Shown in pieces: positions 30,469-46,853 of a DNA stretch of 64,000 bases. This DNA comes from Escherichia phage anhysbys. Within the stretch, counting starts at the first letter, position 1; every line of letters begins with the position of its first letter. The position numbers were made by a program, and so were the translations under genes. Below the pieces are notes generated by a model. That model worked only from the letters and a program-made list of their open reading frames with translations, was not told the origin of the DNA and ran no database searches. The stretch lies in sequence record NC_052656.1; one strand, written 5' to 3'.

Positions 30469-30504
30469 AAAACCTCCTCTCTCTTTTAGTATAGTTATCT
30501 TATA

Positions 30505-31914: not shown

Positions 31915-31955
31915 ATTTTTGTCAATAAAAAAGGGAGCAATAAGCTCCCTGATTA

Positions 31956-32915
31956 TTAGATTCCAATAATAGTTGCTGCTCGTTTATCTTTGGATCTGGT
32001 GTTTGCTCTACTACGTGACAAACCTCCACAAGATTCACAACGAATGATATCGAAAGAACTTACCGCAGTGTGGTATTGCTTACCAGTAACAACGTGAACA
32101 TGATCACTGCCGCAACGAGAACAACGGACTTTCTCATCTGGGTAATAAGCGGATAAGTTAGGATGCTGTGGAATCCACGGAAGGATTTTCATATACAAAT
32201 CACGAAGTGAAACAACATCACCATCATTGTAAATCTGCATACGTTCAAAAGCATCACGATCACCTTCACAACATGCTTTCCATAAAGGGAACCCCTCGTT
32301 ATCCAGTTTTTCACTTTCTGTTTCAAAATACGCTCCCATCTCTTTAAGAGAATTGGAAGGAAGTGCAAACTGTTTCTTAGCTGCCTTCAAGGTATCAACA
32401 ACTACATAGTTAGAAGGTGGAGCCATATCATGATATGCGAAGCGTTGGTTAATGTATGCACGGTCAAACTTGTACCCATTGTGAGCCACAACAACATCAG
32501 CTTCATTCAGAAGATTCCAAAGATCTTGGCAAAGTTCCCAATCATCTGTATGATCGATATCGAAAAGAGGATAAGAAGATAAATTCTTACCTTCTACTTC
32601 ACCTGTATACAAATCAGCAGAAGAGTAAGATAACAAATAACCCCTACGAATTACCTGGTCTGGAGAAATGAAGGCTTTGAATCGACGGAAAGTATATGCA
32701 ATCTCTGGTGCAGTTTCAACATCAATAATTTTAATAACTGGTTGTTTCTTTTTAACTGGCTCTTGTTTACTTGCACCGAAACGTGCAAGAAAATCATTTA
32801 CTGTGCTTTTTCTTGTTGGACTACCTAAAACAATTGCTGCAATATTGCGAGAAGACATACCCTCTGCACTCATACTAAGGATATCTGCTTTCTGCTCTTC
32901 TGTTAATCTGCTCAC
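31956..32915 (-). CDS. DEDD-family 3'-5' exonuclease with N-terminal HTH and C-terminal zinc ribbon
   Basis: IIDVETA (Exo I), VAHNGYKFD (Exo II), YNDGDVV (Exo III); CSRCG ... CESCG at C-terminus. Confidence 0.6.
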   Translation of the reverse strand: MSRLTEEQKADILSMSAEGMSSRNIAAIVLGSPTRKSTVNDFLARFGASKQEPVKKKQPVIKIIDVETAPEIAYTFRRFKAFISPDQVIRRGYLLSYSSADLYTGEVEGKNLSSYPLFDIDHTDDWELCQDLWNLLNEADVVVAHNGYKFDRAYINQRFAYHDMAPPSNYVVVDTLKAAKKQFALPSNSLKEMGAYFETESEKLDNEGFPLWKACCEGDRDAFERMQIYNDGDVVSLRDLYMKILPWIPQHPNLSAYYPDEKVRCSRCGSDHVHVVTGKQYHTAVSSFDIIRCESCGGLSRSRANTRSKDKRAATIIGI

Positions 32916-33601
32916 TCTGCCTCCTGTTGTGAGATGTATGACTGAAGCATACTCTCAAATGTTGTATCGTCATTATCCCAGCGTTTCATGTATACCAACT
33001 GGAAAATTGTTTCTATCCATTCATCTGTTGTCATATGGACTTCTTCTCCATCCCAAGAAGTAAAATTAACGCCATCTGGGAACCACGAGTAGTAAGTATC
33101 TTTAACTGTTTGGAAAAGTTCTGCTTGAGTTTTACAAGCTGAAAGAAGATTAAAACAAGTAATATCTCCGAACTTAATATCAAAATCTTGATAAGGTCGG
33201 ATACTATCTGTTTTATCTCCCATTAGCATCTGATAGGCTAACCAATAACTTCCCCAACCTTTAACTTCTTTCTTTTTACCTTTATCTACGATCCATATGT
33301 CGCCAATAGACTCGTCAATAAGAATTATATCTGGATTTTTAAATACTCCATCCTCTTTGTAGAAATTAAAAAGGATACTAGGAGTATGTAAACTATCTTT
33401 ATCTATAGACACTACGATATAAGAAAATTTACCCGTCCTTTTATAATCTTTATAACCTTGGAAACCATACTTCTCTAACTCATCGTCAGCCTCTATTACA
33501 GTAACAACATCACCATTGTGGAACTCCACAAGATAATCTTTGGTTTCTGAAAGCTGAAGTGGTTTGATATCTAATCGTTCAGATTTATATTCTACAGGCA
33601 T
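32912..33601 (-). CDS. hypothetical protein (possible PD-(D/E)xK-like nuclease)
   Basis: 229-aa ORF; IILIDESIGDIWIVDKGKK resembles a D...E.K core; ATG 33601 has only a weak RBS. Confidence 0.45.
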   Translation of the reverse strand: MPVEYKSERLDIKPLQLSETKDYLVEFHNGDVVTVIEADDELEKYGFQGYKDYKRTGKFSYIVVSIDKDSLHTPSILFNFYKEDGVFKNPDIILIDESIGDIWIVDKGKKKEVKGWGSYWLAYQMLMGDKTDSIRPYQDFDIKFGDITCFNLLSACKTQAELFQTVKDTYYSWFPDGVNFTSWDGEEVHMTTDEWIETIFQLVYMKRWDNDDTTFESMLQSYISQQEAE

Positions 33602-34038
33602 TTTGAAGGCGTGTCTGAAAGTTTTTCCTACGCCAATAACTCCGCAATATTTTTCTAAACGTAGATGTTTTAGAATACCTAAGACTTTTGTTTTAGCTGC
33701 TTGGAAGGTGTGTCCGATATCTTCTGGCGGGTATTGCTTATCAATAATTTCGAACTCTTCCTTTGTGAAGGGACGTTTGTTTTTGGAGGCTCTTTCTGCA
33801 TTTGTATCTCCTAGCCAACCTCCAATTTTAGTCTTACTTTTACCCCAAAACTCTGTCTTATTTTTAAATTCCTTTTGAGCACCTGAAGGGATGTGCTTCG
33901 CAATGATTGTTCTTTTCTCTAATGCAGACGCTGCTTGGAAAGCGATCTGATCATAATCAATTGCAGCTATTGTTTCTTCGTTGACATATAAATGAAGATC
34001 TTCAGGTTTAATTAAAATATAACCGCTAATATTTCCCC
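33595..34038 (-). other. 148-codon stop-free open frame lacking any ATG/GTG/TTG (possible non-canonical start, recoding, or pseudogene)
   Basis: Minus frame read codon by codon from TAG at 34039-34041 to TAG at 33592-33594 with no stop; K/E-rich protein-like translation; different frame from both neighbours. Confidence 0.35.
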
Positions 34039-34042
34039 CTAA

Positions 34043-34252
34043 TTATTCATCGTCATCCTCTGTTGAGAATGTTTTAGTATACGGACATTGACGACTTTTC
34101 GGGATTGCTATAACTTCATCTTGGTTAGCGTTAGAATAGTAGCAATATTTTGTGTTGCCATTAACTTCAGAATCAGACAAGATTAAAGTAATTTGACCTG
34201 CTGCTACTGTGAAACTAAAAGCTAAAAGAACGACTGTCAGAATCTTTTTCAT
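34043..34252 (-). CDS. small secreted/lipoprotein-like protein
   Basis: N-terminal signal-peptide-like MKKILTVVLLAFSFTVAAG; own promoter and AGGAGG RBS. Confidence 0.55.
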   Translation of the reverse strand: MKKILTVVLLAFSFTVAAGQITLILSDSEVNGNTKYCYYSNANQDEVIAIPKSRQCPYTKTFSTEDDDE

Positions 34253-34260
34253 AACGCCTC

Positions 34261-34291
34261 CTAAAAAGCCTACCTCATTAAGTAGGTAGGC
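34261..34291 (-). terminator. intrinsic terminator overlapping the downstream promoter
   Basis: Minus-strand GCCUACCU-ACUUAAUG-AGGUAGGC followed by UUUUUAG. Confidence 0.55.
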
Positions 34292-34320
34292 ATAATATCA
34301 TAACTAATCCCGCAAGTCAA
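34292..34320 (-). promoter_or_regulatory. sigma70-like promoter (TTGACT-17-TATTAT)
   Basis: Minus-strand TTGACT (34315-34320), 17-nt spacer, TATTAT (34292-34297); predicted start falls inside the terminator 5' arm. Confidence 0.55.
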
Positions 34321-34324
34321 GAAC

Positions 34325-35203
34325 TTATTTAAGGATTGTTGCTTTGGTTAAATCTTCCATCAGACCTCGAATCTCATTGAAGCACAGAAGGACTGAAGCT
34401 TCAATACTACCTTCTTCGTCTGCAAAATATTTCGGAAAACGTAGTTTAGAAAGTTTAAACTCTTTATCCACTACAAAATCTACAACACCATCATATTCAA
34501 GACCGATTGCAACCACATCTTTACCATCTTCTTTTAGTTCGACAGCTTTAGACTCGTATAGGGATTCTTTACTCCAAACAACAACGCCCTCGCTATCCTC
34601 CATTTTGATATAATTTCCGAGAGTAATACGATCTGCTTCGTGATTCTCCAACAATTCGCCAAAACCTTTTACAATAGCTTCTTCGTGCACACTAAAACCT
34701 ACCGAAGGGAAAGTCCCCAGAACGGAACGGAGGAAAGAAGTAATCTCTTCTGCAACCTTTTTACTTCCATTAAGAACATAAAGAAGATTCGTAGTTTTAT
34801 CCAAGACAACATAGTTAAAGAAATCTTCAGGTTCTGTTTCAGGCAATAGTGCAAATTCAATATCTTCCTTCATTGCTTTGACTACTTCTTTATCAACATA
34901 AAACTCTTTACCTTCGCTCCCCATGTCCTGACGCATTTCTTCTAGACGTTCATTCAGAATACGTTTAACTTTCTTTTTATCTACTTTCTTCACAGATTGA
35001 CCTACATTAAGTAGTTCAAGATCTGAAAACTCTTTTACAAATTTAGAGTCATCTTCGAAACGAACAAGACCGATAGTGTGTGACTGGGAGCCTTCTGCCG
35101 TTACAAATTCCAGAGGAATATCTGTAATGCTGTTAAGGGATGCTACAGAAGCATTGTCACCAACAACCATAGGCAGAGCGGATTTAAAAGATTTTACAAA
35201 CAT
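34325..35203 (-). CDS. putative RdgC-like recombination-associated protein
   Basis: 292 aa; overall pattern resembles RdgC from memory only. Confidence 0.35.
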   Translation of the reverse strand: MFVKSFKSALPMVVGDNASVASLNSITDIPLEFVTAEGSQSHTIGLVRFEDDSKFVKEFSDLELLNVGQSVKKVDKKKVKRILNERLEEMRQDMGSEGKEFYVDKEVVKAMKEDIEFALLPETEPEDFFNYVVLDKTTNLLYVLNGSKKVAEEITSFLRSVLGTFPSVGFSVHEEAIVKGFGELLENHEADRITLGNYIKMEDSEGVVVWSKESLYESKAVELKEDGKDVVAIGLEYDGVVDFVVDKEFKLSKLRFPKYFADEEGSIEASVLLCFNEIRGLMEDLTKATILK

Positions 35204-35259
35204 GTTTCCTCCTATTTAATACATCTCACATTACCGCCCATAAAGGGCGGCTTACAACA

Positions 35260-35985
35260 TTACTTGTTAATAATACCTGCAATATTAGGTTTGACAAAGG
35301 TCGATGGTTTCATGATCTTACCTTTATCATCAAAGAATACATACACTTTCTGTTTTTCATTATAAACAGCATGAACACCAGTGTATGCCCCTTCTGGACG
35401 ATTGGCATTTCGTTCTTCAATTGCAGCGCATTCTTGTGCAATTGCTGAATCGATATCTGAAGTTTTCCAGGTTTTCAGCAACTGTTGTTTAGTTGGATAC
35501 TTGGAATCATTACTTTTCAATACCTCTTTAATAACTTTCTTTTCTGGATATTTTGAACGGATTAGAGTGTCACGAGACATACGCATAATACCAGCAGCCA
35601 TTAGTGCCATTTGAACTGGCTCTGTAAATGTTTGTTCCAAAGCATCGAAATCGGTATACACAGTTGGAGTAAAAACATCGCCTACAGCATAGTCCAAGAA
35701 ATTCATCGTATGTTCTTCACCAAAGAACATGTAAGTCAGATAACTGGATACTACAAAAATATCCGCTGCTGCATCCAAGAGTTCTACATGATCGTTTACT
35801 TTCGCGGCTGTTTCATACTCTTTAAGCTCTTCACGAACGAACCCGATTTGGGACATAAATAGCTCTTGAGTGAATTCAGGTTGTTCACCACCTCGTGCTT
35901 TGGCATTCCAATCAATCACGTGCTTTGCTGCATTTTTGAAAAATTCAGTATCGAATTTAATATCTTTAAAAAAATTCTCGATCAT
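35260..35985 (-). CDS. putative MazG-like nucleotide pyrophosphohydrolase
   Basis: REELKEYETAAKVNDHVELLDAAADIFVV resembles the MazG EExxE...D helix motif. Confidence 0.4.
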   Translation of the reverse strand: MIENFFKDIKFDTEFFKNAAKHVIDWNAKARGGEQPEFTQELFMSQIGFVREELKEYETAAKVNDHVELLDAAADIFVVSSYLTYMFFGEEHTMNFLDYAVGDVFTPTVYTDFDALEQTFTEPVQMALMAAGIMRMSRDTLIRSKYPEKKVIKEVLKSNDSKYPTKQQLLKTWKTSDIDSAIAQECAAIEERNANRPEGAYTGVHAVYNEKQKVYVFFDDKGKIMKPSTFVKPNIAGIINK

Positions 35986-35994
35986 TATAACTCC

Positions 35995-36177
35995 TTATTT
36001 AAAATAGCTTTCTAGAAAGTTGCTAATATTTACTACAGTCTCACCCATGTAAATTCCTGCGAAACCGAAAACAAGCATACGTGGAATATTGAAATACCAT
36101 TTATCCGCCGGAAAAGATGCCAGAATTACAATAGCAATTGCTATCAACATCATAAGAATTGTTGCTAAAATTATCAT
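35995..36177 (-). CDS. small membrane protein
   Basis: Start moved to ATG 36177 (ATGA overlap with upstream stop); two hydrophobic helices. Confidence 0.4.
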   Translation of the reverse strand: MIILATILMMLIAIAIVILASFPADKWYFNIPRMLVFGFAGIYMGETVVNISNFLESYFK

Positions 36178-36368
36178 AAAAATGCCTCCAGGTATTTTGC
36201 ACAATGGTAAGCTAAGAAACAAGAAACTACCGCATACCCAACTCCAGACATACATGAATCAATCGCAATACATACGGTTCTTTTCTTTGAATTCTTAGGA
36301 AAGCTTTCCGAAGCATTCATACAATAAAAAGAAAGCACACTGAAAACGATTAAAATGGCTAAGAACAT
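36174..36368 (-). CDS. small membrane protein
   Basis: 64-aa ORF with hydrophobic segments. Confidence 0.4.
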   Translation of the reverse strand: MFLAILIVFSVLSFYCMNASESFPKNSKKRTVCIAIDSCMSGVGYAVVSCFLAYHCAKYLEAFL

Positions 36369-36377
36369 TTTTCCTCC

Positions 36378-37505
36378 TTATTCTGCTGGTTCCCAAGTAC
36401 CTGGGATCATTTCTCGAATACGAACACCAACAGGTTTTGTTGGAATACCTTCATCTGAAAATTCTTCATACTCTATTTCAACGAACTGATTAATCAAGGT
36501 AGAAGCATTCTCTGCTTTACGATAATTGATAGTCTCATGAGCATCTTTACGCATTAAGAATTCGACTACTTTACCATTTTCCATCTCACCTGTCAACACT
36601 CCATCACCATTTTTATCACTTTTTGAATTTGTTACTTTAACTTCAAGGGTGTGGCGAGGCTTACGTTTAATAACGTCATAAGAACGTTTATCAAATTCGT
36701 AAACTCCGTGAGCATTACGATATACTACACCTTCAGCTTTCTCAAGTAAAGCTTTTTCATAGAAAGCATCAAACTGTTCTTGGTTTTCAATATACTCTGT
36801 ATGAACTACGCAAATAAGCTCGTCAAGACCATAATCTTCAACTACTGCCTTAAGAGCAGTAAGAACATCAACACGTTTTTCAAACGGTAGATCTGGAACT
36901 GGAATATCATATACGTAATAATTCAGCAAAGGTGTATTTGCATTATGCTTCTTCCAGGCACTGTTAATTTGTTGCAGACTAAGGACACCTAACCCAGCAA
37001 ACACTTCACCATCAAGAGGATGACCAACAACTTCACTAATAAAGTTTGGAATACCTTTCCAATGAGGTGGCAGGTTATACACTTCCCCAGCTTTTGATAA
37101 ACACTCCCCTTTCATGTTAATCATAGAACGTAACCCGTTCAGTTTGTATTGTGCATAACCAGGGAACACAACCCTTTCAGGATAATCTTTATAATCCTGG
37201 CATTTCATTGGTGTAGAAGGAACATGGTTTTCAGCTTCTTCTTTTGTTTTATAATAGCCATTCTTTAACTGTTTTGTCCATTTGGCAAAAGCTTCAAGTT
37301 CAGCTTGTTCTTCTGGTGTTGTTTCATTGGAACGACCGATGTTTTTTGCTTCTGCTGTATAAGATTTTTCTGTGATTTTTCCACCTACCCTTCCATGAGC
37401 TACAGTAACAACTGCACCATCTGTATACACTGTCCACTGTTTAAGTTTTCCTTTTGAATCTTTACCATACAGCGTTTGATTTGTTTGTTGCATTAGTCCT
37501 CCCAT
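36378..37505 (-). CDS. ATP-dependent DNA ligase
   Basis: YKLNGLR (motif I KxNGxR), DGEVF (III), EGVVYR (IV), DVIKRK (V). Confidence 0.7.
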   Translation of the reverse strand: MGGLMQQTNQTLYGKDSKGKLKQWTVYTDGAVVTVAHGRVGGKITEKSYTAEAKNIGRSNETTPEEQAELEAFAKWTKQLKNGYYKTKEEAENHVPSTPMKCQDYKDYPERVVFPGYAQYKLNGLRSMINMKGECLSKAGEVYNLPPHWKGIPNFISEVVGHPLDGEVFAGLGVLSLQQINSAWKKHNANTPLLNYYVYDIPVPDLPFEKRVDVLTALKAVVEDYGLDELICVVHTEYIENQEQFDAFYEKALLEKAEGVVYRNAHGVYEFDKRSYDVIKRKPRHTLEVKVTNSKSDKNGDGVLTGEMENGKVVEFLMRKDAHETINYRKAENASTLINQFVEIEYEEFSDEGIPTKPVGVRIREMIPGTWEPAE

Positions 37506-37714
37506 TTAAAAACTGAAATTTTCAATCTGTTACACACTTCATCCAAATCTGCGTCGAGTAACGTTGTAGATGTTGCCAACATATAATCAATGCTTGTGAA
37601 ACCTTGCCCTTTGGCATAGTCAAGCATATCTTCATACATATCTTCAAGATCACCGTCATCAAAAGTAGCTAGAAAATCCTCGTCCCCGCTACGAACATAA
37701 AATGCAGTACTCAT
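37493..37714 (-). CDS. hypothetical protein
   Basis: 73-aa ORF. Confidence 0.4.
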   Translation of the reverse strand: MSTAFYVRSGDEDFLATFDDGDLEDMYEDMLDYAKGQGFTSIDYMLATSTTLLDADLDEVCNRLKISVFKWED

Positions 37715-37902
37715 TCATCTTCATCCCAAGATTCAAAAACGCAGCAATCATCGGTTTCTATAATACCAACACGTCCGCAGGTATTGCAAGTGATTTTATC
37801 ACCGTAGAATAAATAATTTTTATCACCCTCTGTGTTTACAGTTATGTCATTACTACCACAAGGGCAAGTCAGCCAACCAACAACAACGATATCTTTTTTC
37901 AT
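37711..37902 (-). CDS. hypothetical zinc-ribbon protein
   Basis: CPCG ... CNTCG cysteine pairs. Confidence 0.4.
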   Translation of the reverse strand: MKKDIVVVGWLTCPCGSNDITVNTEGDKNYLFYGDKITCNTCGRVGIIETDDCCVFESWDEDE

Positions 37903-37911
37903 AATCCCTCC

Positions 37912-38238
37912 TTAAGCGTTCAGTTCGTTGTTGAGTTCGTAAATCTCTTCTTGAAGAGCATCAATCTCTTCCTCCAAACGGGAGATCTCTTCTTTTAGAT
38001 ATACCATTTCTGATTCTTTCTCTTCTAATTCATTTTCAAATTTTACTTTATTCGCCTCATTTTCATAATGCAGTTCAGCGTAATCATCACGCATTTGTTC
38101 AATAAGATGAATCAGAGATAAGATATAGTTATCCCCAGTTTCATCTCGCCACTCTTCCCCGTGGCGCAAGATTGTGATTCGTCCCGTGTTTTCATCTAAA
38201 ATTGTCTCATATTTACGATCATCTGTATAAATCTGCAT
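37912..38238 (-). CDS. hypothetical coiled-coil protein
   Basis: 108 aa with heptad-like E/L-rich C-terminus. Confidence 0.45.
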   Translation of the reverse strand: MQIYTDDRKYETILDENTGRITILRHGEEWRDETGDNYILSLIHLIEQMRDDYAELHYENEANKVKFENELEEKESEMVYLKEEISRLEEEIDALQEEIYELNNELNA

Positions 38239-38247
38239 TATTACTCC

Positions 38248-38652
38248 TTATTGAAGTTTAAGTGAACCACGAAGACGTTTCTCTTGCTGATCACGAATAT
38301 ATTGTGGAACCTCGTGAATTGAATCATTACCGTGCCTATTTTCAACAACTAAAGAGATAACTTGATAACCAAACTCTTCAGCAAGAGTTAGATAAGGTTT
38401 AAGTTCTTTCTCTGTGGTTGAAGTGTTAGAAACAATAATCTTGTTAAGATTAGATGCCATAGCATCACGAACAATACTCTGACACCATGCGTGTGCTTTA
38501 CCTACATTTTCTGGCTTCCAATCGTAAACACCACTTTCTGTATAATGATATTGATCTGCCTCACAGATAGGCCAATAACCTTCAGAAATAATTTCTGCTA
38601 CCGTAGATTTACCAGCACCTGAAACGCCACGTAAAATGATAAGTTGTTTCAT
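38248..38652 (-). CDS. P-loop kinase (polynucleotide-kinase-like)
   Basis: Walker A ILRGVSGAGKST at N-terminus; adjacent to RNA ligase and phosphoesterase genes. Confidence 0.55.
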   Translation of the reverse strand: MKQLIILRGVSGAGKSTVAEIISEGYWPICEADQYHYTESGVYDWKPENVGKAHAWCQSIVRDAMASNLNKIIVSNTSTTEKELKPYLTLAEEFGYQVISLVVENRHGNDSIHEVPQYIRDQQEKRLRGSLKLQ

Positions 38653-39585
38653 TTATCCTCCAAAGAAGTTTTCGATTTTTTCACGTCGCTCTTGCTGATT
38701 TAAAGCAGCCCATTGAGTCTTCGTAAAATTATTTCGAATCCATTCTAACAAAGCGTAATATTCTTCGTCAACAATTTGTTTGGCATTTTTCGGATTATCC
38801 CAAATCAGATCCCACTTTTTATCTCCACCACGCATAAGAAACTTCTTAGTAAGATAGTGTGGTGATTTAATTTTTAAAAGTAAGTTGAACGGATAGTTTG
38901 TTTCACGAACTACAAACCCTTCGTGTTTACAATGTTTAGACATTTCAACAACATCTGAAAACTTAACCATTGGATGAACTTCAGGACGCTTAAATTTGGT
39001 GACAGAAGCAATTCCATCAAGAGCACCTTCAGGTAACATAAAACTTGTCCCATCAGGATTTTGAATTCTGGCACCAATTAAGTATGCACCTGGTTCTTCT
39101 TCGACAATATGTGGATCAGAAGGATCACAGATTTCAAACAGGAAAGTTGCTTTTGCACTCTCTGCCCATTTGATGAAATGTTCTATGTCATCGCACTCTG
39201 AAACAATATGATTCTTTGCAATACTTGCAAAATCTGATTCAAGGCTTCCTGTTGTCGATACAATAAGTTGACCTTTATATACACCTACAGAGGCCATAAA
39301 ACCATTTACTTTACGAACCACATCTACAAGTTCATCCGCTGGTAGATCTGTGCCATTCTCAAAACGATTAAAAATCTTAGTGAAAGGCCAAATAACAACA
39401 TTGTCATCAGCATCAACAACGATTCCGCGACATTCTAGAAGACGAGAATCAATGCTCCATAAATTATCCCAGAAAACTTTGTTCTTATACTTAAGAACAG
39501 ATAGACCAGAATACTCTCCTTCTTTATATGTTTTCTTATGAACTAAACCTTTTTCAACCAAATCGTCGCAATTAAATTTAGCCAC
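38653..39585 (-). CDS. RNA ligase (nucleotidyltransferase superfamily)
   Basis: RKVNGFMA (motif I KxNG), HEGFVVRE (motif IV), LLLKIK (motif V). Confidence 0.6.
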   Translation of the reverse strand: MAKFNCDDLVEKGLVHKKTYKEGEYSGLSVLKYKNKVFWDNLWSIDSRLLECRGIVVDADDNVVIWPFTKIFNRFENGTDLPADELVDVVRKVNGFMASVGVYKGQLIVSTTGSLESDFASIAKNHIVSECDDIEHFIKWAESAKATFLFEICDPSDPHIVEEEPGAYLIGARIQNPDGTSFMLPEGALDGIASVTKFKRPEVHPMVKFSDVVEMSKHCKHEGFVVRETNYPFNLLLKIKSPHYLTKKFLMRGGDKKWDLIWDNPKNAKQIVDEEYYALLEWIRNNFTKTQWAALNQQERREKIENFFGG

Positions 39586-39586
39586 A

Positions 39587-40138
39587 TTATTCTCCTTTGA
39601 TTATTTTGTGATGGTCTACAGTCACGATATCTCGTTTACTCATCATAGAAATTATCTCATCAAAATGCAAGATTTTTCCGTGTGCATCCCAACCCACATC
39701 TAACATTTTACCATAAGCTTCATCAGGGAAAGATCCGTGGGAATGCCCGTGTAGCATGATTGATCCACGACCTTGTTTATTCCAGGAGGCCATAGGGTAA
39801 TGGCTTAAGACGAAGAACAGCTTCTGATATTTCACTTCGTCATAATACACCACTTCTCCATACTCTGCAAGCACTTCTCGGTGTTTGCTGTAGTCATGGT
39901 TCCCAACACAGTAGGTGATATCTCCTTGGAGACGGGAAGCAATTTTACGGGTATCTTCTTCAGTTCCGAAACAGAAGTCGCCCAAATGCCACATCTTAAC
40001 ACCAGGAGTAGTAGCACATTTGTTCCATGCTTCGATCAAGGCTTCTGTCATGTGGTCCATATCTTCCCACGGACGATATTCAGGAGCAAACTCTCGAATG
40101 CGTTTATGCATAAAATGCAAATCGCTTGTAATAAACAT
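39587..40138 (-). CDS. calcineurin-like metallophosphoesterase
   Basis: SDLHF (DxH), HLGDF (GD), VGNHDY (GNHD) motifs. Confidence 0.7.
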   Translation of the reverse strand: MFITSDLHFMHKRIREFAPEYRPWEDMDHMTEALIEAWNKCATTPGVKMWHLGDFCFGTEEDTRKIASRLQGDITYCVGNHDYSKHREVLAEYGEVVYYDEVKYQKLFFVLSHYPMASWNKQGRGSIMLHGHSHGSFPDEAYGKMLDVGWDAHGKILHFDEIISMMSKRDIVTVDHHKIIKGE

Positions 40139-40494
40139 TAGTATAATCCCTCGCTAAATAATTCATGGTCGTGACCATTACGCTCATGGTCGATCTGGTC
40201 AGCATTTTCCGCGATGATGTAAGCATCCGCACGACTCCACCAATTGTAATACTGATCGATAAAGCCTTGATTATCTGGTGTGCACAAAGTTTTGTTGATT
40301 ACACCTGCTTCTTTCAACACGTTTAACTGTGCATATAGTACAGGATTTGCATGTCGAACACAAGGAATAATTAACTCTTCGCCATTATTCAAAATATACT
40401 TATTTGCAGCACAGACAATAACACGTTGCGCATAATGACCCTCACCCATCCAGGTAAGAGGTTGGTAACAAATGTTGTTTTCAATACCACTCAT
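40138..40494 (-). CDS. hypothetical protein
   Basis: 118-aa ORF. Confidence 0.45.
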   Translation of the reverse strand: MSGIENNICYQPLTWMGEGHYAQRVIVCAANKYILNNGEELIIPCVRHANPVLYAQLNVLKEAGVINKTLCTPDNQGFIDQYYNWWSRADAYIIAENADQIDHERNGHDHELFSEGLY

Positions 40495-40653
40495 TGTTTC
40501 CTAATCCTCCTCTCTTAAATTATCCTCGAAAAAACTAGTATCTGGAAGTAAAAGATCATTGCTTGTGTCGGGCCAATCCTCTTCTTCTCTGTAGATAAAG
40601 TAACCTTCGTCCTCTTCTTGTTCCGACCAAACCGAATGATGCATGTTCTCTCC

Positions 40654-41010
40654 TTAGTAGTGCACACGAATCATTTTAATACCATAACGCTGCATGGATT
40701 CTTTTGCAAGCATGAATTTATCCCCAGCGGCGGGATTAGAAGTATGCACGAAAATGGTAGGTGAACCAAAGCAAGGTTTACCAAACACCAGAAGTTCTTC
40801 CAGGTGCAGGAAAACATCATACCCATCTTGGTCTGACTCCATACCTAAATCGTTGTCAAAATGCCACTCGTCTACAAAACGATAACCCTTCTGCACCTCA
40901 TTCATGTAACGAGAGGCAAGAAGTTCCTGTGAGGTTTTAAACCAGATTGCATCTGGACAACCATAATCTTTTGGATCACGTAAATCATCAAGCCAAATAA
41001 TAGTACCCAT
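40654..41010 (-). CDS. hypothetical protein
   Basis: 118-aa ORF. Confidence 0.45.
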   Translation of the reverse strand: MGTIIWLDDLRDPKDYGCPDAIWFKTSQELLASRYMNEVQKGYRFVDEWHFDNDLGMESDQDGYDVFLHLEELLVFGKPCFGSPTIFVHTSNPAAGDKFMLAKESMQRYGIKMIRVHY

Positions 41011-41020
41011 ATAACCTCCT

Positions 41021-41491
41021 CTAAGCTGGCATGATTAAAAAAGAACTCTCCACTTCAAAATGCCAATCATCCACAAGCCCTGATTCCCAATCCTTCTCTT
41101 CATGGAAAGAGCAAATCCAACGGTACATACCTGGCGGTGTATTCTCAACATCTTCTGGCAACCCATAATCCAAAGCTGTCTTACCGTTCTCTGTAAAACC
41201 AGGATGGAGATTAGGAGCTTTCAGTACAGAAACCATACCTCCAACATCCACAGCTACGATCCACTCTGTCATGTATGGGCTGTCATATTGAGGCTCATCA
41301 GAACCTACCTCAACAGCCTCTGTGCGTAAGATGATAATAGCCTGCTCTGTGATTGGGGCTTTGACAATATACCCGTGATCCTCAAAAAGATCGATAACCT
41401 CGAACTCATCACCGTTTTCTACACCATAGCTCTTATTCAAAGAGATAAACTTCGGGTTATCATCGTAAGCTTTAGTTACTTTAATTTTCAT
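41021..41491 (-). CDS. hypothetical protein
   Basis: 156-aa ORF. Confidence 0.5.
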   Translation of the reverse strand: MKIKVTKAYDDNPKFISLNKSYGVENGDEFEVIDLFEDHGYIVKAPITEQAIIILRTEAVEVGSDEPQYDSPYMTEWIVAVDVGGMVSVLKAPNLHPGFTENGKTALDYGLPEDVENTPPGMYRWICSFHEEKDWESGLVDDWHFEVESSFLIMPA

Positions 41492-41712
41492 TTTTCCTCC
41501 TTCACTTTAACCTCAAATTCTACAGGCTTACCCTCAATGTAAAAACATTGATACTCTGCCTTATCATCCTCATCACGAGGCCAAGTTACCAAGGAGTTAT
41601 AGCAATCTTCTGGTGCTTTGAAGATGGTTTTAGTCTCCACAGTAACATTCCCATTAAGTGTTGCCAATACCACCCACCCAGCTATAGGGATCATAGTGCC
41701 TCCACTTTCCAC
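41488..41712 (-). CDS. hypothetical protein
   Basis: 74-aa ORF. Confidence 0.4.
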   Translation of the reverse strand: MESGGTMIPIAGWVVLATLNGNVTVETKTIFKAPEDCYNSLVTWPRDEDDKAEYQCFYIEGKPVEFEVKVKEEK

Positions 41713-41873
41713 GTTTTACCCTTATCAACCAAGGTCTTTGCTACAGCATACTCCTTCCCATTAACAAGGAAATAATAAACGATAAAAGATTTCCCGATTG
41801 TTACTGTCTTAGTAACCTCTACACGTTTAACACCTTGCATGTATTTTGCCTTACCGGAATAGAGTAAAATCAT
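41691..41873 (-). CDS. hypothetical protein
   Basis: 60-aa ORF. Confidence 0.3.
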   Translation of the reverse strand: MILLYSGKAKYMQGVKRVEVTKTVTIGKSFIVYYFLVNGKEYAVAKTLVDKGKTWKVEAL

Positions 41874-42151
41874 TTTGCATTCCTCTTGTTGTTGATAACA
41901 TCCATAGCAGTATATGGTTTATTAGTGCCATGATACTCCAGAATCATTGGAGAGCCTTCTTGCACTACTTCAAAGATACCATAAACAGAACTTTCAGCAA
42001 ATACCATTTGCTTCGTTCCTTCATCATTTACAACAAGAGAAAACTTCTTGCCTGTTCCGTTGAGGATCTCGTATTTCTTGCCAGCAGTGAATAATCCAGA
42101 GTACCACTCATTATCTGTTGCTTTTACACACTTCAGAAAAGTCTTGATCAT
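41870..42151 (-). CDS. hypothetical protein
   Basis: 93-aa ORF. Confidence 0.45.
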   Translation of the reverse strand: MIKTFLKCVKATDNEWYSGLFTAGKKYEILNGTGKKFSLVVNDEGTKQMVFAESSVYGIFEVVQEGSPMILEYHGTNKPYTAMDVINNKRNAK

Positions 42152-42501
42152 TTCTTTTTGCTCCTCTTTTTAGATTTCTCATACAAACCTAACACAGCCG
42201 CTTCTTTTGCACAAGTAGGAACTGAAGTCATTCCTCTTCTTTTTGCTTCTGGCAGTTGCAAAGTCCATATTCCCCACCAATAAATTTGGTCTGCCGTGAG
42301 TGGTTCAGCCATTGGATCTGCCTCCTGCTCCTCAAGACGTTGCAACGCTTCTTCAATCTTCTCGATTGGTGTGTCAAAGACGAATGCCTCCGTATCAAAT
42401 TTATCTTTCTTAGGAACTGATTTGGCTACTTTGAGAACCTCGTTTTTCGGTTTCTTAGTAACGTTCTTTGGCTTTGATAACTTCTTCGGTGTTTTCGCCA
42501 C
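42148..42501 (-). CDS. hypothetical basic protein
   Basis: 117 aa, Lys-rich at both termini. Confidence 0.45.
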   Translation of the reverse strand: MAKTPKKLSKPKNVTKKPKNEVLKVAKSVPKKDKFDTEAFVFDTPIEKIEEALQRLEEQEADPMAEPLTADQIYWWGIWTLQLPEAKRRGMTSVPTCAKEAAVLGLYEKSKKRSKKK

Positions 42502-42694
42502 TTACTACCTCCATACGATCTAAAAAGTCATTCACAAATCTCCAGTAACGTTGACCTGTTCTAAGATCTTCATAGATAACCACAGGATCAAACACTTTAG
42601 ATATTCCAGCAGGTTTTGGAAATTCCACTACCGTATATAAACCACCTTTTGCTACACAAGAATAGGTTACGCCTGTAATTGGATAGTTGCTCAT
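42455..42694 (-). CDS. hypothetical protein
   Basis: 79-aa ORF. Confidence 0.4.
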   Translation of the reverse strand: MSNYPITGVTYSCVAKGGLYTVVEFPKPAGISKVFDPVVIYEDLRTGQRYWRFVNDFLDRMEVVSGENTEEVIKAKERY

Positions 42695-42885
42695 TTCTTT
42701 ACGTACTCCATGATTGGGGTATGGTCGCCAGTAAGCGTAACACGGCTGTAGGACACATCTTGTGTCTTCAGTGTATCAATCCACTCTAAGAAGTGTTCTT
42801 TCGCTTCTGTGTAGTTCTGTGTGCCTTTAACAACGTGTATACCATCTAGAGTTACACGGAATACCATTTGAATAACGTCTTTCAT
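42691..42885 (-). CDS. hypothetical protein
   Basis: 64-aa ORF. Confidence 0.4.
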   Translation of the reverse strand: MKDVIQMVFRVTLDGIHVVKGTQNYTEAKEHFLEWIDTLKTQDVSYSRVTLTGDHTPIMEYVKK

Positions 42886-42981
42886 TTCTTACCTCCTTTG
42901 TTGTCAAAATAACTTACCAGAACATCGTGAACCACACACATGGCAAAAATCAGAACAATTGTTGTCAGGACTGGATTCTCA

Positions 42982-43305
42982 CTAATTAGTGCTATCATCT
43001 TTAACCACCTCCAATTGCCTTTCGAGTTTGACTTTGTTTGAGAACTGATAATGACACAACTTACATTGCATGTCAACAATCTGATCGTGATTTAACCCTA
43101 CAATTTTAACTTCCTTTGCACCATCCCATTCCAAATACTCAAAGCCATCCAAATGATTACTCTTGTCCAACAAGAATGCTATCTGCTGCCATTCAATCTG
43201 AATGTCATTTAAATGATATGCTGCACAGAAGATATCCTCGTAGTAAAAGACGATCATTGTCATTGCTTCGTCCAGCACAACTACCTCTTGTCTTGTAAAT
43301 CTCAT
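42982..43305 (-). CDS. hypothetical protein (first gene of the minus-strand block)
   Basis: 107-aa ORF with taggaggcta RBS. Confidence 0.45.
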   Translation of the reverse strand: MRFTRQEVVVLDEAMTMIVFYYEDIFCAAYHLNDIQIEWQQIAFLLDKSNHLDGFEYLEWDGAKEVKIVGLNHDQIVDMQCKLCHYQFSNKVKLERQLEVVKDDSTN

Positions 43306-43536
43306 TCTAGCCTCCTAAACGCGTCTCTGACGCACTTTTTATATATAAGATGATAAATCACCTTACCTAGTAAGTAAACTTGCTCTACGAGCCTCTTATG
43401 AAGCTTGTGTTATAGGCTATACTATTGCTACCTGTTTAAGCAAGGTTTTTGCGCACAGAAAATAATTTTTAATAAAACTCTTGACTTTTGTGTTCGAAGT
43501 ATGCTACCCTAGAAATCTATTAACGAGCGCAGCGAG

Positions 43537-43562
43537 TTAAGGTTTTAAGGTTTTAAGGTTGT
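43537..43562. repeat. tandem repeat, about 3 copies of AAGGTTTT
   Basis: ttaaggttttaaggttttaaggtt read directly. Confidence 0.8.
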
Positions 43563-43569
43563 TGATGTA

Positions 43570-43601
43570 GTACTCTGTACTCAAGTACTGTACTCCGTAC
43601 T
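43570..43601. repeat. cluster of five GTACT pentamers
   Basis: GTACT at 43570, 43577, 43585, 43590 and 43597. Confidence 0.7.
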
Positions 43602-43604
43602 AGA

Positions 43605-43618
43605 TTAATAATTATTAA
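43605..43618. repeat. perfect 14-bp palindrome TTAATAATTATTAA
   Basis: Read directly; sits in an AT-only tract. Confidence 0.7.
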
Positions 43619-43735
43619 ATATTAATAATAAATAATTATTAGATCTAACAAACAGGTATAGTGTATCAGAACTGGTACGTACAGATCAACTTCTATCAAT
43701 TAAAAATAAAATAATAAATTATTATAAATAATACT

Positions 43736-43749
43736 TGATCTATAGATCA
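43736..43749. repeat. perfect 14-bp palindrome TGATCTATAGATCA
   Basis: Read directly, about 45 bp upstream of the first plus-strand late-block ORF. Confidence 0.7.
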
Positions 43750-43795
43750 GTATGAAGTACAGTACGGAACATCTTAACAAGAATGGAGGTGTGCA

Positions 43796-43981
43796 ATGAT
43801 TAGTGAGAATCCGTGCAAATGGCATCATGTGCCTATTAAAGATTGTATGTCTTGTAATCCACGTTCTATTTATAACATTGCATCTTATGATGACGACAAT
43901 GTGTTAGACGATGATGAAGGCTGGGAGGATTTAGATTGGACTGGTTATGAAACCAAAAAGGATAAAATTATTCCTAGTTGA
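43796..43981 (+). CDS. hypothetical Cys-rich small protein
   Basis: 61-aa ORF with ggagg RBS. Confidence 0.45.
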   Translation: MISENPCKWHHVPIKDCMSCNPRSIYNIASYDDDNVLDDDEGWEDLDWTGYETKKDKIIPS

Positions 43982-44018
43982 CTTAAGATATCCTTCGTGC
44001 TAAACTAGAAGTGAGGAG

Positions 44019-44270
44019 ATGCCGATCACTCCCCATTTGGGGTTCGAAGGATATATGCAAAATAGCTTTTATTTTAGGTGCCGTGCTTGTAATAGGCATT
44101 TGACAAACCACTCCAGACGTGATAAAAATGGAGTCATCAAGGAATCAGACCTCTGTTCTATTTGCACAGGTTTGGCTTTTGATGATAGTCCCGAAAGGGT
44201 TTATCAGCATCAATGTATAACAGACGTTCTCGTGTCAAACTTGGTAGAGGACGAACAACTAACAGATTAG
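44019..44270 (+). CDS. hypothetical Cys-rich protein
   Basis: 83 aa; CRACNRH ... CSICTG. Confidence 0.45.
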   Translation: MPITPHLGFEGYMQNSFYFRCRACNRHLTNHSRRDKNGVIKESDLCSICTGLAFDDSPERVYQHQCITDVLVSNLVEDEQLTD

Positions 44271-44278
44271 GAGGAACA

Positions 44279-44527
44279 ATGTCTCTATTAGAAAAACACG
44301 TGTTTGAAGATGGTAACGGCAACGCAGTTTTTCTTTTCCATCCAGAAAAATACACATCTGAAAACAATGGTACAACTTCTATTGTAATCACTAAAGATGT
44401 TAAAGTTATTGATTTCTTGGCTCTGATGCGAGAGATGGATCTTGAAATTAATACTTTTAACGCAGAAGCTTTGGTTGTTGCTCTTCTGGAAAAGAAAGAT
44501 AGTGAAGAAGTAGCAGAATATGCTTAA
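44279..44527 (+). CDS. hypothetical protein
   Basis: Start moved to ATG 44279 after aggagg. Confidence 0.45.
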   Translation: MSLLEKHVFEDGNGNAVFLFHPEKYTSENNGTTSIVITKDVKVIDFLALMREMDLEINTFNAEALVVALLEKKDSEEVAEYA

Positions 44528-44534
44528 ATAACTA

Positions 44535-44564
44535 TTGACAAACGTATCCTTCATATGTTAGGAT
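44535..44564 (+). promoter_or_regulatory. sigma70-like promoter (CTATTGACAA family)
   Basis: TTGACA at 44535-44540, about 18-nt spacer, TAGGAT. Confidence 0.4.
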
Positions 44565-44773
44565 ACGTTCATCAAGTGTGGTAACAGGGTCGTTGACTTT
44601 TGTTAAGAGGGGCTTGCACTGCGGTAGTGTTAGAGACTACTTCTTCAGAGGTTAGCTACCAAAGAGGAAAAGGAATAGTCTCGGCTCAAGAACTTTTACG
44701 CTGAAAGTTGGGCTTGGTCTTAGAGAATGTAGCGGTTCTCTACAATCGTCAGCGTCTCTGTTACCACATTTAT

Positions 44774-44848
44774 GGCCCTGTAGCTCAATGGGAGAGCTGT
44801 CGGCTCATAACCGATAGGTAGCTGGATCGAAACCAGCCAGGGCCACCA
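44774..44848 (+). tRNA. tRNA-Met (anticodon CAT)
   Basis: Manual cloverleaf: acceptor GGCCCTG/CAGGGCC, loop CTCATAA, T-arm GCTGG-ATCGAAA-CCAGC, encoded CCA. Confidence 0.8.
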
Positions 44849-44850
44849 AC

Positions 44851-44925
44851 GTCTTTATGGTGTAATGGATAGCACAGGAGTCTTCTAAACTCTTAGTCAA
44901 GGTTCGATTCCTTGTAAAGACACCA
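44851..44925 (+). tRNA. tRNA-Arg (anticodon TCT)
   Basis: Acceptor GTCTTTA/TAAAGAC, loop CTTCTAA, T-loop TTCGATT, encoded CCA. Confidence 0.8.
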
Positions 44926-45120
44926 GAACATTTTAACATGAATTAGCTCAAGTGATTTGAACCCACTACTGATCATGGTGGCAGAGAATGAGGCAAGTAT
45001 GTCAGACATTATAAACAAAGGCCACGGTTATATTAGAAGACATAAATGCTCGAAGAGCACCGTTCGTTGAGAACGGGGGTTGGTGGAGTCACCATTCATG
45101 GTAAAATGTTTTAAAAACTA

Positions 45121-45150
45121 TTGACAACTAACATTATTTTATGTTAGATT
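45121..45150 (+). promoter_or_regulatory. sigma70-like promoter (CTATTGACAA family)
   Basis: TTGACA at 45121-45126, 18-nt spacer, TAGATT. Confidence 0.4.
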
Positions 45151-45158
45151 ATAAGTAT

Positions 45159-45249
45159 GGAAGGGCAAATCGACGTGGCGACGAAAACGGTCTTGAAAAC
45201 CGCCGAGCTTGAAAGAGCCTTGGGAGTTCGACTCTCCCTCCTTCCGCCA
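45159..45249 (+). tRNA. tRNA-Ser (anticodon TGA), class II
   Basis: Acceptor GGAAGGG/TCCTTCC, loop CTTGAAA, long variable arm, T-arm GGGAG-TTCGACT-CTCCC, encoded CCA. Confidence 0.75.
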
Positions 45250-45254
45250 GATTA

Positions 45255-45340
45255 GGTAGATTGGTGAAATGGTAGCCACAACAGTTTGCTAAACTGTAGT
45301 CGGAAACGGCGTGTAGGTTCGAGTCCTACATCTACCGCCA
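45255..45340 (+). tRNA. tRNA-Ser (anticodon GCT), class II
   Basis: Acceptor GGTAGAT/ATCTACC, stem ACAGT/ACTGT with loop TTGCTAA, long variable arm, encoded CCA. Confidence 0.8.
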
Positions 45341-45470
45341 AGTTCTTTTTAATATAGCTTACTTTAATAGAGTAAACTTTCGGCAGATGGCCTCCACCAT
45401 CTTACCGATAACTCATAGTTAGTGGTGTGAACACTGGCTATTTTAAAAAGAATTTAAATATTAGTATTTA

Positions 45471-45558
45471 GGTGAGTTAATTCCGTAGGGGTAGCGGGGC
45501 AGACTGTAAATCTGTTATCATTGCGATTCGGGTGGTTCGACTCCATCACTCACCACCA
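45471..45558 (+). tRNA. tRNA-Tyr (anticodon GTA), class II
   Basis: Acceptor GGTGAGT/ACTCACC, loop CTGTAAA, long variable arm, T-arm GGTGG-TTCGACT-CCATC, encoded CCA. Confidence 0.75.
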
Positions 45559-45564
45559 AATTAA

Positions 45565-45650
45565 GATGAGTTGGCTGAATGGTTTAAGCGGCGGACTGTT
45601 AATCCGTGTTCGAAAGAACGATATAGGTTCAAATCCTATACTCATCGCCA
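45565..45650 (+). tRNA. class II tRNA with anticodon GTT (Asn-decoding by anticodon, isotype uncertain)
   Basis: Acceptor GATGAGT/ACTCATC, stem GCGGA/TCCGT with loop CTGTTAA, variable-arm hairpin GTTC-GAAA-GAAC, T-arm ATAGG-TTCAAAT-CCTAT, encoded CCA. Confidence 0.6.
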
Positions 45651-45657
45651 GAATTAT

Positions 45658-45734
45658 GGACTTGTAGAGTTAAGGTAAACCCCCAGTCGCCAAGAGGCTT
45701 CTGGAATTGCAGGTATCGAATCCTGCCGAGTCCC
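45658..45734 (+). tRNA. tRNA-like element with non-canonical anticodon arm (possible pseudo-tRNA)
   Basis: 7-bp acceptor GGACTTG/CGAGTCC and T-stem GCAGG/CCTGC with 8-nt loop TATCGAAT, but no standard 5-bp/7-nt anticodon stem-loop; no CCA. Confidence 0.3.
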
Positions 45735-45740
45735 AGCTTT

Positions 45741-45815
45741 GCTCCTATAGTATAATGGCTATTACAACGGTTTTGTAATCCGTGGATCTCTGTTCGATTC
45801 AGAGTGGGAGCACCA
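45741..45815 (+). tRNA. tRNA-Thr (anticodon TGT)
   Basis: Acceptor GCTCCTA/TGGGAGC, loop TTTGTAA, T-arm CTCTG-TTCGATT-CAGAG, encoded CCA. Confidence 0.75.
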
Positions 45816-46088
45816 ACACAACATTAAGGGCACTGTGATTGATCGTCGTATCCTGTGCACAAGGTCTGTTCGAAAGACAGTGTTCTTAGTATTGTGTTGA
45901 TCACACAAAGAGTCACCTGAAACTTGACCGGAGTAGGGTTGGATGGGGCAAAAGAAGAAGCGGCTCTCCCATCGACAGCAACGAAGAATAATATTTGACT
46001 TTGGTTTTGTATTATTTTAAGTTAGCTTACCGAACGTAGGGCTAGTCACCCAATGGGATACTCGTCACTGTCCCACTCAATAAAACTA

Positions 46089-46118
46089 TTGACAACCAAT
46101 AGTAAAATGTAGTATAGT
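46089..46118 (+). promoter_or_regulatory. sigma70-like promoter (CTATTGACAA family)
   Basis: TTGACA at 46089-46094, 18-nt spacer, TATAGT. Confidence 0.45.
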
Positions 46119-46129
46119 AAAGATGTAGG

Positions 46130-46203
46130 GCGTTCTTGGTGTAGCGGTAGCATTCCGTCCTTCCAAGTCGGCGGCACGAGTTCGATCCTCGTAGAACGCT
46201 CCA
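46130..46203 (+). tRNA. tRNA-Gly (anticodon TCC)
   Basis: Acceptor GCGTTCT/AGAACGC, loop CTTCCAA, T-arm ACGAG-TTCGATC-CTCGT, encoded CCA. Confidence 0.75.
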
Positions 46204-46301
46204 AATTATTTAATAAAGGGTTGCCAGAAAACTTTCTCTTTTACTCATGGTTTTCTCCTTCTCTCACACCTCTTCTGGTTGCCCTTCATTAAATGATTTA
46301 T

Positions 46302-46376
46302 TGGTTTGTAGTGTAGTCCGGTAGCACACGACACTTTGACTGTCGTAGGTTTGGTTCAAATCCAGACAGACCAGCC
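46302..46376 (+). tRNA. tRNA-Gln (anticodon TTG)
   Basis: U1-A72 acceptor TGGTTTG/CAGACCA with discriminator G, stem CGACA/TGTCG with loop CTTTGAC, encoded CCA. Confidence 0.8.
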
Positions 46377-46382
46377 ATATAA

Positions 46383-46459
46383 CGGAATTTAGCTCAGTTT
46401 GGTAGAGCATACGCTTTGGGAGCGTAGGGTCGCAGGTTCGAATCCTGCAATTCCGACCA
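46383..46459 (+). tRNA. tRNA-Pro (anticodon TGG)
   Basis: C1-G72 acceptor CGGAATT/AATTCCG, stem TACGC/GCGTA with loop TTTGGGA, T-loop TTCGAAT, encoded CCA. Confidence 0.8.
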
Positions 46460-46465
46460 ATCAAA

Positions 46466-46539: not shown

Positions 46540-46541
46540 GT

Positions 46542-46611: not shown

Positions 46612-46617
46612 CATAAT

Positions 46618-46835: not shown

Positions 46836-46853
46836 CTATCTATTGAATAAAAC

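Follow-up and report, generated by a model that had tools for sequence, protein, structure and literature searches.

Escherichia phage anhysbys (sequence record NC_052656.1) is a Phapecoctavirus (phAPEC8-like, Stephanstirmvirinae) of E. coli. Here, we describe a predicted three-gene RNA repair cassette in a 64,000-nt stretch of its DNA; this whole stretch is referred to as the window. The genes lie side by side on the minus strand within 38248-40138, exactly where an initial annotation, made from the sequence alone, had placed them.

38248-38652, minus strand: P-loop kinase, predicted stand-alone mini polynucleotide 5'-kinase, 134 amino acids (aa) (open reading frame [ORF] list, Pfam, PHROGs, profile)
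38653-39585, minus strand: predicted Rnl1-type adenosine triphosphate (ATP)-dependent RNA ligase, 310 aa, GTG start (Pfam, PHROGs, profile)
39587-40138, minus strand: binuclear metallophosphoesterase (MPE), aq_1665 clade, 183 aa (Pfam, motifs, fold)

Every motif cited in that annotation was recovered (GVSGAGKST in the kinase; KxNG, EGFVV, and LKIK in the ligase; DxH, GD, and GNHD in the MPE). The products had been described as separate polypeptides, and the three ORFs are indeed distinct, though translationally coupled, as seen from their abutting or overlapping stop and start codons. The kinase ATG directly follows the ligase stop codon (TAA), with GGAGGA within the 3' end of the ligase gene; the ligase GTG lies 1 nt from the MPE stop codon; and the MPE start is overlapped (TAATG) by an upstream gene of 118 aa. 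Scans of positions 35000 to 45000 for consensus promoters (32 promoter-like sites versus 30 expected) and terminators (7 terminator-like sites versus 5.7 expected) were uninformative. PHROG matches were obtained for the ligase (PHROG 562, 3.5e-70), the kinase (PHROG 2071, 2.6e-56), and the MPE (6.5e-56).

RNA ligase

The middle gene product is a predicted Rnl1-type ATP-dependent RNA ligase. It matched Pfam PF09511 (RNA_lig_T4_1) along the whole profile (positions 1 to 227 of 227; 4.4e-15, 56.6 bits against a cut-off of 28.3), with its motifs at K92-V-N-G95, E222-GFVV, and L237-KIK240 and its nucleotidyltransferase residues at K92 (the adenylylation lysine, motif I), E151 (motif III), E222-G223 (motif IV), and K238/K240 (motif V). 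A single-sequence search of the PDB was too weak (0.086); a clade profile built from seven homologues (25 to 49% identity, six other phage lineages) matched the T4 Rnl1 structures 2c5u/5tt6/9do4 at 3e-24 to 8e-23. The next match, at 3e-6, was an entry deposited as "ATP dependent DNA ligase," a further one at 2e-3 is presumably an archaeal Rnl3-type ligase, and no capping enzyme was among the structure matches of the profile. Because the clade profile matched T4 Rnl1 at 3e-24 and its next structure at 3e-6, the ligase groups with RNA ligase 1 and not with DNA ligases or capping enzymes, the alternative named in the initial annotation.

Ligase residues R53, K70, F72, K92, and G95 align with T4 Rnl1 R54, K75, F77 (these three specific to Rnl1), K99, and G102, and E151, E222, G223, K238, and K240 align with T4 E159, E227, G228, K240, and K242. 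In all, 10 of 11 T4 Rnl1 residues reported as essential, reputedly from mutational work of the Shuman laboratory, are conserved. The profile alignment with T4 Rnl1 stops near residue 266, and a conserved module of 66 aa follows motif V. Assignment as a T4 RnlA equivalog with the C-terminal tRNA-specificity domain was ruled out by the score against NCBIfam TIGR02308 (24.7 bits, cut-off 242.25) and by the short C terminus.

Putative polynucleotide kinase

The P-loop of the kinase spans residues 9 to 17, including K15 and S16, and the protein matched Pfam AAA_33 (4.1e-10) and, over residues 1 to 104, the polynucleotide kinase PHROG 505 (1.7e-8). Its close homologues are all stand-alone proteins of 126 to 145 aa, in which G12, G14, K15, D33, N76, T77, E104, R106, H107, and H113 are invariant. 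As with the ligase, a single-sequence PDB search was too weak, and profiles were needed. The top match of the clade profile was Pnkp1 of the Capnocytophaga RNA-repair complex (1.9e-7), followed by two fungal kinases (about 1e-5 to 2e-5), T4 Pnk (3e-5), the kinase domain of Clostridium thermocellum Pnkp (6e-5), the tRNA kinase PSTK (1e-3), and nucleoside/nucleotide kinases (5e-3 or weaker).

The initial annotation had also raised the alternative of a nucleotide or deoxynucleoside monophosphate (dNMP) kinase. Polynucleotide kinases stand among the closest matches of known structure, and the "dNMP kinase" reading fails because the dNMP-kinase PHROG matched the P-loop only (1.6e-4, residues 1 to 35). 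These comparisons support a relative of polynucleotide kinases rather than a nucleotide kinase. K15, S16, and D33 align with T4 Pnk K15, S16, and D35, which makes D33, as the D35 counterpart, the candidate general base; the putative lid arginine is R106, an invariant residue that aligns with T4 Pnk R122 and not R126, in a lid whose alignment is unreliable residue by residue. No C-terminal HAD (DxDxT) 3'-phosphatase domain was found in the 134-aa protein, which comprises the kinase domain only.

Metallophosphoesterase

The third protein had been called a calcineurin-type phosphoesterase, and its motifs and Pfam matches bear this out (Metallophos, 3.1e-5, 24.9 bits against a cut-off of 21.5; Metallophos_2 also matched). 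The motifs stand at D6-L-H8, G53-D54, and G79-NHD82. All six binuclear MPE motifs (DxH, GD, GNH[D/E], H, GH, and GHxH) are invariant, and so are D6, H8, D54, N80, H81, H113, H132, and H134 across 34 to 37 homologues; the metal site is intact. An AlphaFold model (predicted local distance difference test score, 94.4) placed Aquifex aq_1665 (1xm7) as the nearest solved relative (Foldseek, 7.8e-9; TM, 0.71), as did the profile (1.6e-22).

The implied Pnkp/lambda-phosphatase type did not survive: membership of that clade was ruled out, with aq_1665 nearest and lambda phosphatase ranked 34th among the fold matches (E = 0.018; TM, 0.41), and no Pnkp phosphatase domain was listed among the structure matches. 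With 23,670 cluster representatives at E ≤ 1e-3, the family is very large. Two of the 150 nearest ones carry fusions that point to RNA repair: P0364 to an RNA_ligase domain (PF09414) and P0424 to HAD_SAK_2, a "Swiss Army Knife" RNA-repair phosphatase domain. From these fusions and from its linkage to the ligase (below), we propose that the MPE acts as a 2',3'-cyclic phosphodiesterase/3'-phosphatase.

Linkage, fusions, and distribution

Conservation of the trio was surveyed in an IMG/VR sample of 80 viral loci carrying a ligase homologue (29 to 88% identity), in which the ORFs of 12-kb neighborhoods were searched with alignment profiles and "near" was taken as within 6 kb of the ligase. The kinase was near the ligase in 70 of the 80 loci, the MPE in 62, both in 54, and neither in 2. 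Because the loci are not phylogenetically independent, these counts indicate how broad the linkage is and do not amount to a statistical test. In three contigs (L040, L041, and L090), kinase and ligase form a single ORF. This conserved linkage, together with the gene fusions, supports a shared pathway for kinase, ligase, and MPE.

Ligase homologues were present in 684 records of the phage collection. The trio is co-located in Vequintavirus rV5, Pakpunavirus (Pseudomonas), Thalassavirus (Vibrio), and Saclayvirus (Acinetobacter), and Aeromonas Plateaulakevirus has the same trio in the same order; Streptomyces phages pair the ligase with a classical 302-aa Pnkp instead. The ligase clade appears essentially viral: when 185,579 bacterial and archaeal genomes were scanned with a pattern, the single match was a 554-bp contig of a Lysobacteraceae assembly (L092, JAPMLR010000050.1; 97% identity to the ligase N terminus), which is probably phage contamination of the assembly.

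Around the cassette, the segment 36378-41491 shares 99.4% identity with Escherichia phages dw-ec and ETEC-TG and 97 to 98% with dozens more. Some records with related sequences carry host labels that look doubtful ("Campylobacter phage A145/A116/A142," MG065645.1, MG065676.1, and MG065662.1; "Acinetobacter phage vB_AbaM_ABPW7," OP562383.1). Protein identity to the window ligase is 87% for A145 and 48% for A116/A142, and vB_AbaM_ABPW7 has 97% DNA identity to this E. coli-phage ligase or region.

In Pakpunavirus (L004, 5346-8857) and Thalassavirus (L005, 7420-8903), the trio adjoins genes for nicotinamide adenine dinucleotide (NAD+) salvage, namely, ribose-phosphate pyrophosphokinase, nicotinamide phosphoribosyltransferase, and a "phosphatase" gene (in Pakpunavirus, a Macro-domain protein). 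These neighbors hint that RNA repair and NAD+ supply may be connected.

Proposed repair pathway

The cassette is probably a split "heal-and-seal" RNA repair module of Phapecoctavirus. The end-healing and sealing activities of Pnkp/Rnl-type repair had been ascribed to the trio from the outset; the kinase and ligase families, the linkage, and the fusions agree with this, and the part that has to be given up is a Pnkp-type MPE. In the proposed pathway, a host RNase would leave a 2',3'-cyclic phosphate and a 5'-OH; anticodon nucleases and other RNases that need no metal are the most plausible candidates. The MPE, possibly after ring opening by a cyclic-phosphate-processing Receiver-like (cREC) protein encoded nearby, would turn the 2',3'-cyclic phosphate end into a 3'-OH, and the mini-kinase would phosphorylate the 5'-OH with a nucleoside triphosphate as the phosphate donor. 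The ligase, adenylylated on K92, would then move adenosine monophosphate to the 5'-phosphate and seal the nick. The RNA so repaired may be tRNA or another RNA, and the module may serve in counter-defense.

Several findings weigh against this reading. The position of T4 Rnl1 K119 is occupied by T112 in the window ligase, and the 66-aa C-terminal module replaces the ~120-aa C-terminal domain of T4 Rnl1 (about residues 255 to 374). That large domain is said, from work of the Shuman laboratory, to confer tRNA specificity, which is not transferable from T4 to the window ligase because the 66-aa module stands in its place. In the kinase, H36 aligns with T4 Pnk R38, and the essential T4 R126 has no clear counterpart. 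The nearest solved relatives of the MPE are the function-unknown 1xm7, the phosphodiesterase MJ0936, Mre11, the P. putida MPE (a DNA nuclease), and LpxH, and the low rank of lambda phosphatase points the same way. Of 60 related loci, only 8 had a tRNA gene no more than 6 kb from the ligase. Finally, the literature searched yielded no biochemical or genetic test of these ligase, kinase, and MPE clades, and nothing on a Phapecoctavirus RNA ligase or on PF26092.

Neighboring genes and alternative explanations

The following genes lie around the cassette or have been linked to it in related phages.

40654-41010, minus strand: cREC protein, 118 aa (Pfam cREC_REC PF20274, 1.5e-13, 51.7 bits versus 27)
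40501-40644: ORF of 47 aa between the cREC and Y16D genes
40138-40494, minus strand: T4_Y16D-family protein, 118 aa, coupled to the MPE
36378-37505, minus strand: ATP-dependent DNA ligase, 1.1 kb downstream of the cassette
35260-35985, minus strand: MazG-like nucleotide pyrophosphohydrolase, 241 aa (Pfam PRA-PH, 2.7e-6; 31% identity to rV5 gp081)
34325-35203, minus strand: RdgC-like protein
31956-32915, minus strand: RNase H-fold exonuclease
29860-30468, minus strand: NT5C-like nucleotidase
28852-29850, minus strand: ThyX-like protein
9450-10265, minus strand: Sir2-family protein, 271 aa (tblastn to rV5 gp080, 46%, 5.6e-80; Pfam SIR2, 5.4e-22)

Iyer et al. (Viruses 2022, PMC9503650) have published a neighborhood of this kind for rV5 and Proteus phage Mydo, in which a sirtuin and cREC accompany a T4-like tRNA ligase, a "nucleotide kinase," MazG, and, "occasionally," a calcineurin-like esterase; it was predicted to clean up RNA ends bearing a 2',3'-cyclic phosphate so that they can be ligated. 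In the window, a T4-like ligase, cREC, kinase, MazG, and calcineurin-like esterase, all with rV5 orthologues, lie on the minus strand within 35260-41010. The cREC protein is 55% identical to rV5 gp079, which adjoins the rV5 RNA ligase, and is a predicted accessory enzyme that would open the 2',3'-cyclic phosphate (function predicted by the same group, PMC7824862, also PMC9503650). The Sir2 gene lies ~28 kb from the cassette amid genes of unknown function, whereas its orthologue adjoins the ligase in rV5; no sirtuin was found between 28000 and 43300, and the sirtuin-ligase adjacency of the type 2 neighborhood of Iyer et al. (2022) is absent from the window.

Membership of the Y16D protein in the repair module is doubtful. 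It was considered as a sirtuin remnant because its PHROG profile and rV5 Sir2 are both 253 positions long, and a truncated sirtuin was rejected on BLASTP against rV5 Sir2 (E = 0.36).

The proposal of Iyer et al. (PMC9503650) assigns these genes to NAD-dependent, sirtuin-centered repair. There, cREC would open the ring to a 2'-phosphate and Sir2, acting in the manner of KptA/Tpt1, would remove it by ADP-ribosyl transfer, with MPE and MazG mainly disposing of ADP-ribose-cyclic-phosphate by-products and the kinase acting as a nucleotide kinase. The window contains cREC, the MazG-like gene, and a Sir2 of the rV5 type, and in rV5 and its close relatives the Sir2 gene is <2 kb from the ligase. Against these stand the 28 kb between Sir2 and cassette here, the polynucleotide kinases among the best solved relatives of the kinase, and its fusion to the ligase in three contigs. 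Moreover, cREC, Sir2, and MazG each occurred at 5 to 7 of the 80 IMG/VR ligase loci even after profile iteration, and in that sample only in an enterobacterial rV5/phi92/phAPEC8-like group, against 70 of 80 for the kinase and 62 of 80 for the MPE. As kinase and MPE are constant and the other three occasional, the conserved core is the trio and the sirtuin branch is accessory; we regard repair centered on the sirtuin as unlikely for this cassette.

The nearby DNA ligase raises the possibility that the kinase and MPE serve it, either by cleaning DNA ends of the 5'-OH/3'-phosphate type or as a nuclease, leaving the "RNA ligase" with an unrelated role. T4 Pnk acts on DNA too, the fold neighbors of the MPE include Mre11 and the P. 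putida DNA nuclease, and a DNA ligase also lies near the trio in rV5, Plateaulakevirus, and Pakpunavirus. The MPE weakly matched the NCBIfam ligase-associated endonuclease PdeM (E = 0.0034), but at 16.8 bits this is far under the cut-off of 150. It is to an Rnl1-type ligase and not to a DNA ligase that the kinase is fused, and among MPE relatives the fusion partners are an RNA-ligase domain and an RNA-repair HAD domain, which makes processing of DNA ends very unlikely as the role of the cassette.

The three proteins might also be functionally independent, with the ligase mainly a tail-fiber attachment factor and the MPE and kinase acting on nucleotides, for example, by degrading cyclic-nucleotide immune signals. 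T4 gp63 also serves tail-fiber attachment, and MPE enzymes can hydrolyze cyclic nucleotides. Many GenBank records carry the T4-derived label "RNA ligase and tail fiber attachment catalyst," and the trio stands beside the NAD+ salvage genes of Pakpunavirus and Thalassavirus. The cassette, however, ends a minus-strand block of nucleotide metabolism and replication genes (28852-37505, including the RdgC-like to ThyX-like genes above) and is not among structural genes. A PADLOC scan of seven proteins gave a match at the P-loop level only and no signal-related match, and linkage across distant genera plus fusions would be hard to explain without a shared pathway; we give functional independence hardly any credence. 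All three of these explanations are less well supported than split RNA repair, mainly because of the kinase-Rnl1 and MPE-RNA-repair fusions.

tRNA gene cluster

44774-46696, plus strand: tRNA gene cluster, 10 firm genes and 2 lenient ones (Ser-TGA and Tyr-GTA)

At least 12 tRNA genes had been claimed in the initial annotation, a figure valid only leniently because the count varies with stringency: 10 with ARAGORN at default settings, 11 at the Rfam gathering score, and 12 with ARAGORN -ps90. The two extra genes, both tRNA-like with a long arm, are on the plus strand, Ser(TGA) at ~45160-45249 and Tyr(GTA) at ~45475-45558; Rfam matches at the two sites were tRNA at 39 bits (above gathering) and tRNA-Sec at 37.4 bits (below gathering). 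The close relative ESCO13 has 10 tRNAs in its RefSeq record, and neither of the two is among them.

The cluster lies on the strand opposite to the cassette, 3.8 kb past the cREC gene, and had been taken to suggest a countermeasure against host anticodon nucleases. The presence of tRNAs together with a repair kit fits such a role, but the argument is weakened by the 8 of 60 loci mentioned above, and the link between cluster and cassette is a circumstantial sign of anti-tRNase defense.

Directly past the cluster, a weak RyhB-like Rfam match (46783-46837, plus strand; 29.4 bits versus a gathering score of 55) is most likely due to chance.

Significance

The trio is a variant of known heal-and-seal RNA repair, and its novelty is low because GenBank records already annotate the genes and the neighborhood is in the literature as a computational prediction. 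The ESCO13 RefSeq labels are "phosphoesterase," "RNA ligase and tail fiber protein attachment catalyst," and "ATPase," and other records label the kinase gene "putative polynucleotide kinase." The value of the cassette is that of a very widespread predicted phage module, with little added as discovery.

Effectors that cleave tRNA or other RNA, for example, PrrC, RloC, PARIS, retron-associated nucleases, Cas13, and colicin-type tRNases, have come to be recognized as common anti-phage weapons, and to our knowledge the T4 Pnkp/Rnl1 pathway is the sole phage RNA repair pathway tested at the bench. The cassette is likely its equivalent in a larger and more diverse set of phages, whose members include therapeutic candidates against E. 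coli, Klebsiella, Pseudomonas, Acinetobacter, and Vibrio. More tentatively, and at somewhat less than even chances, the aq_1665-type MPE may be a new class of RNA 3'-end healing enzyme within a self-sufficient, NAD-independent three-protein machine, one that would rank as the most common RNA-repair module among large non-T4 phages, given the more than 680 genomes of the phage collection with the ligase, and would protect broadly against defenses that cleave tRNA or mRNA. Biochemical confirmation would give the large aq_1665 MPE family a function and would help to predict which host defenses these phages can escape.

Comparison with known systems

With T4 Pnkp and Rnl1, which counter PrrC, the cassette shares the ligase family (RNA_lig_T4_1; profile match, 3e-24), the kinase fold with the P-loop and Asp chemistry of the T4 Pnk kinase domain, and a logic in which 5'-OH and 2',3'-cyclic phosphate ends would be healed and then sealed. 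T4 Pnkp, however, is a kinase fused to a HAD (DxDxT) phosphatase, whereas the window has a 134-aa stand-alone kinase and an unrelated binuclear MPE. The window ligase differs from T4 Rnl1 in being without most of the C-terminal domain, in having Thr for K119, and in its TIGR02308 score (24.7 versus 242 bits).

The C. thermocellum Pnkp/Hen1 and Capnocytophaga Pnkp1-Rnl-Hen1 systems use the same enzyme classes (P-loop kinase, calcineurin-type MPE, and ATP-dependent ligase), and Capnocytophaga Pnkp1 is the best solved relative of the window kinase (1.9e-7). These bacterial systems carry kinase and MPE (in CthPnkp, the ligase too) on one polypeptide with a Hen1 methyltransferase as partner, and their MPE is lambda-phosphatase-like and their ligase not Rnl1-type; in the window, there are three polypeptides, an aq_1665-clade MPE, and an Rnl1-type ligase, and no Hen1 was seen.

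Fungal and plant Trl1 resembles the predicted cassette in having an Rnl1-family ligase domain, a polynucleotide kinase, and a cyclic phosphodiesterase and in acting on 2',3'-cyclic-phosphate/5'-OH breaks, although Trl1 structures gave no match to the ligase profile at E ≤ 1. It differs in being one polypeptide, in its 2H-family phosphodiesterase, and in needing a 2'-phosphate at the junction and Tpt1 afterwards.

Closest is the rV5 (V5)/Mydo neighborhood, with orthologous genes (identity to rV5: ligase, 47%; kinase, 43%; MPE, 36%; cREC, 55%; and Sir2, 46%) and the same predicted system. In the window, Sir2 is 28 kb away, and the order is cREC, Y16D, MPE, ligase, and kinase on one strand. Where Iyer et al. 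described the MPE as "occasional" and the kinase as a "nucleotide kinase," in the present sample it is the MPE and kinase that recur constantly, with sirtuin, cREC, and MazG genes turning up occasionally.

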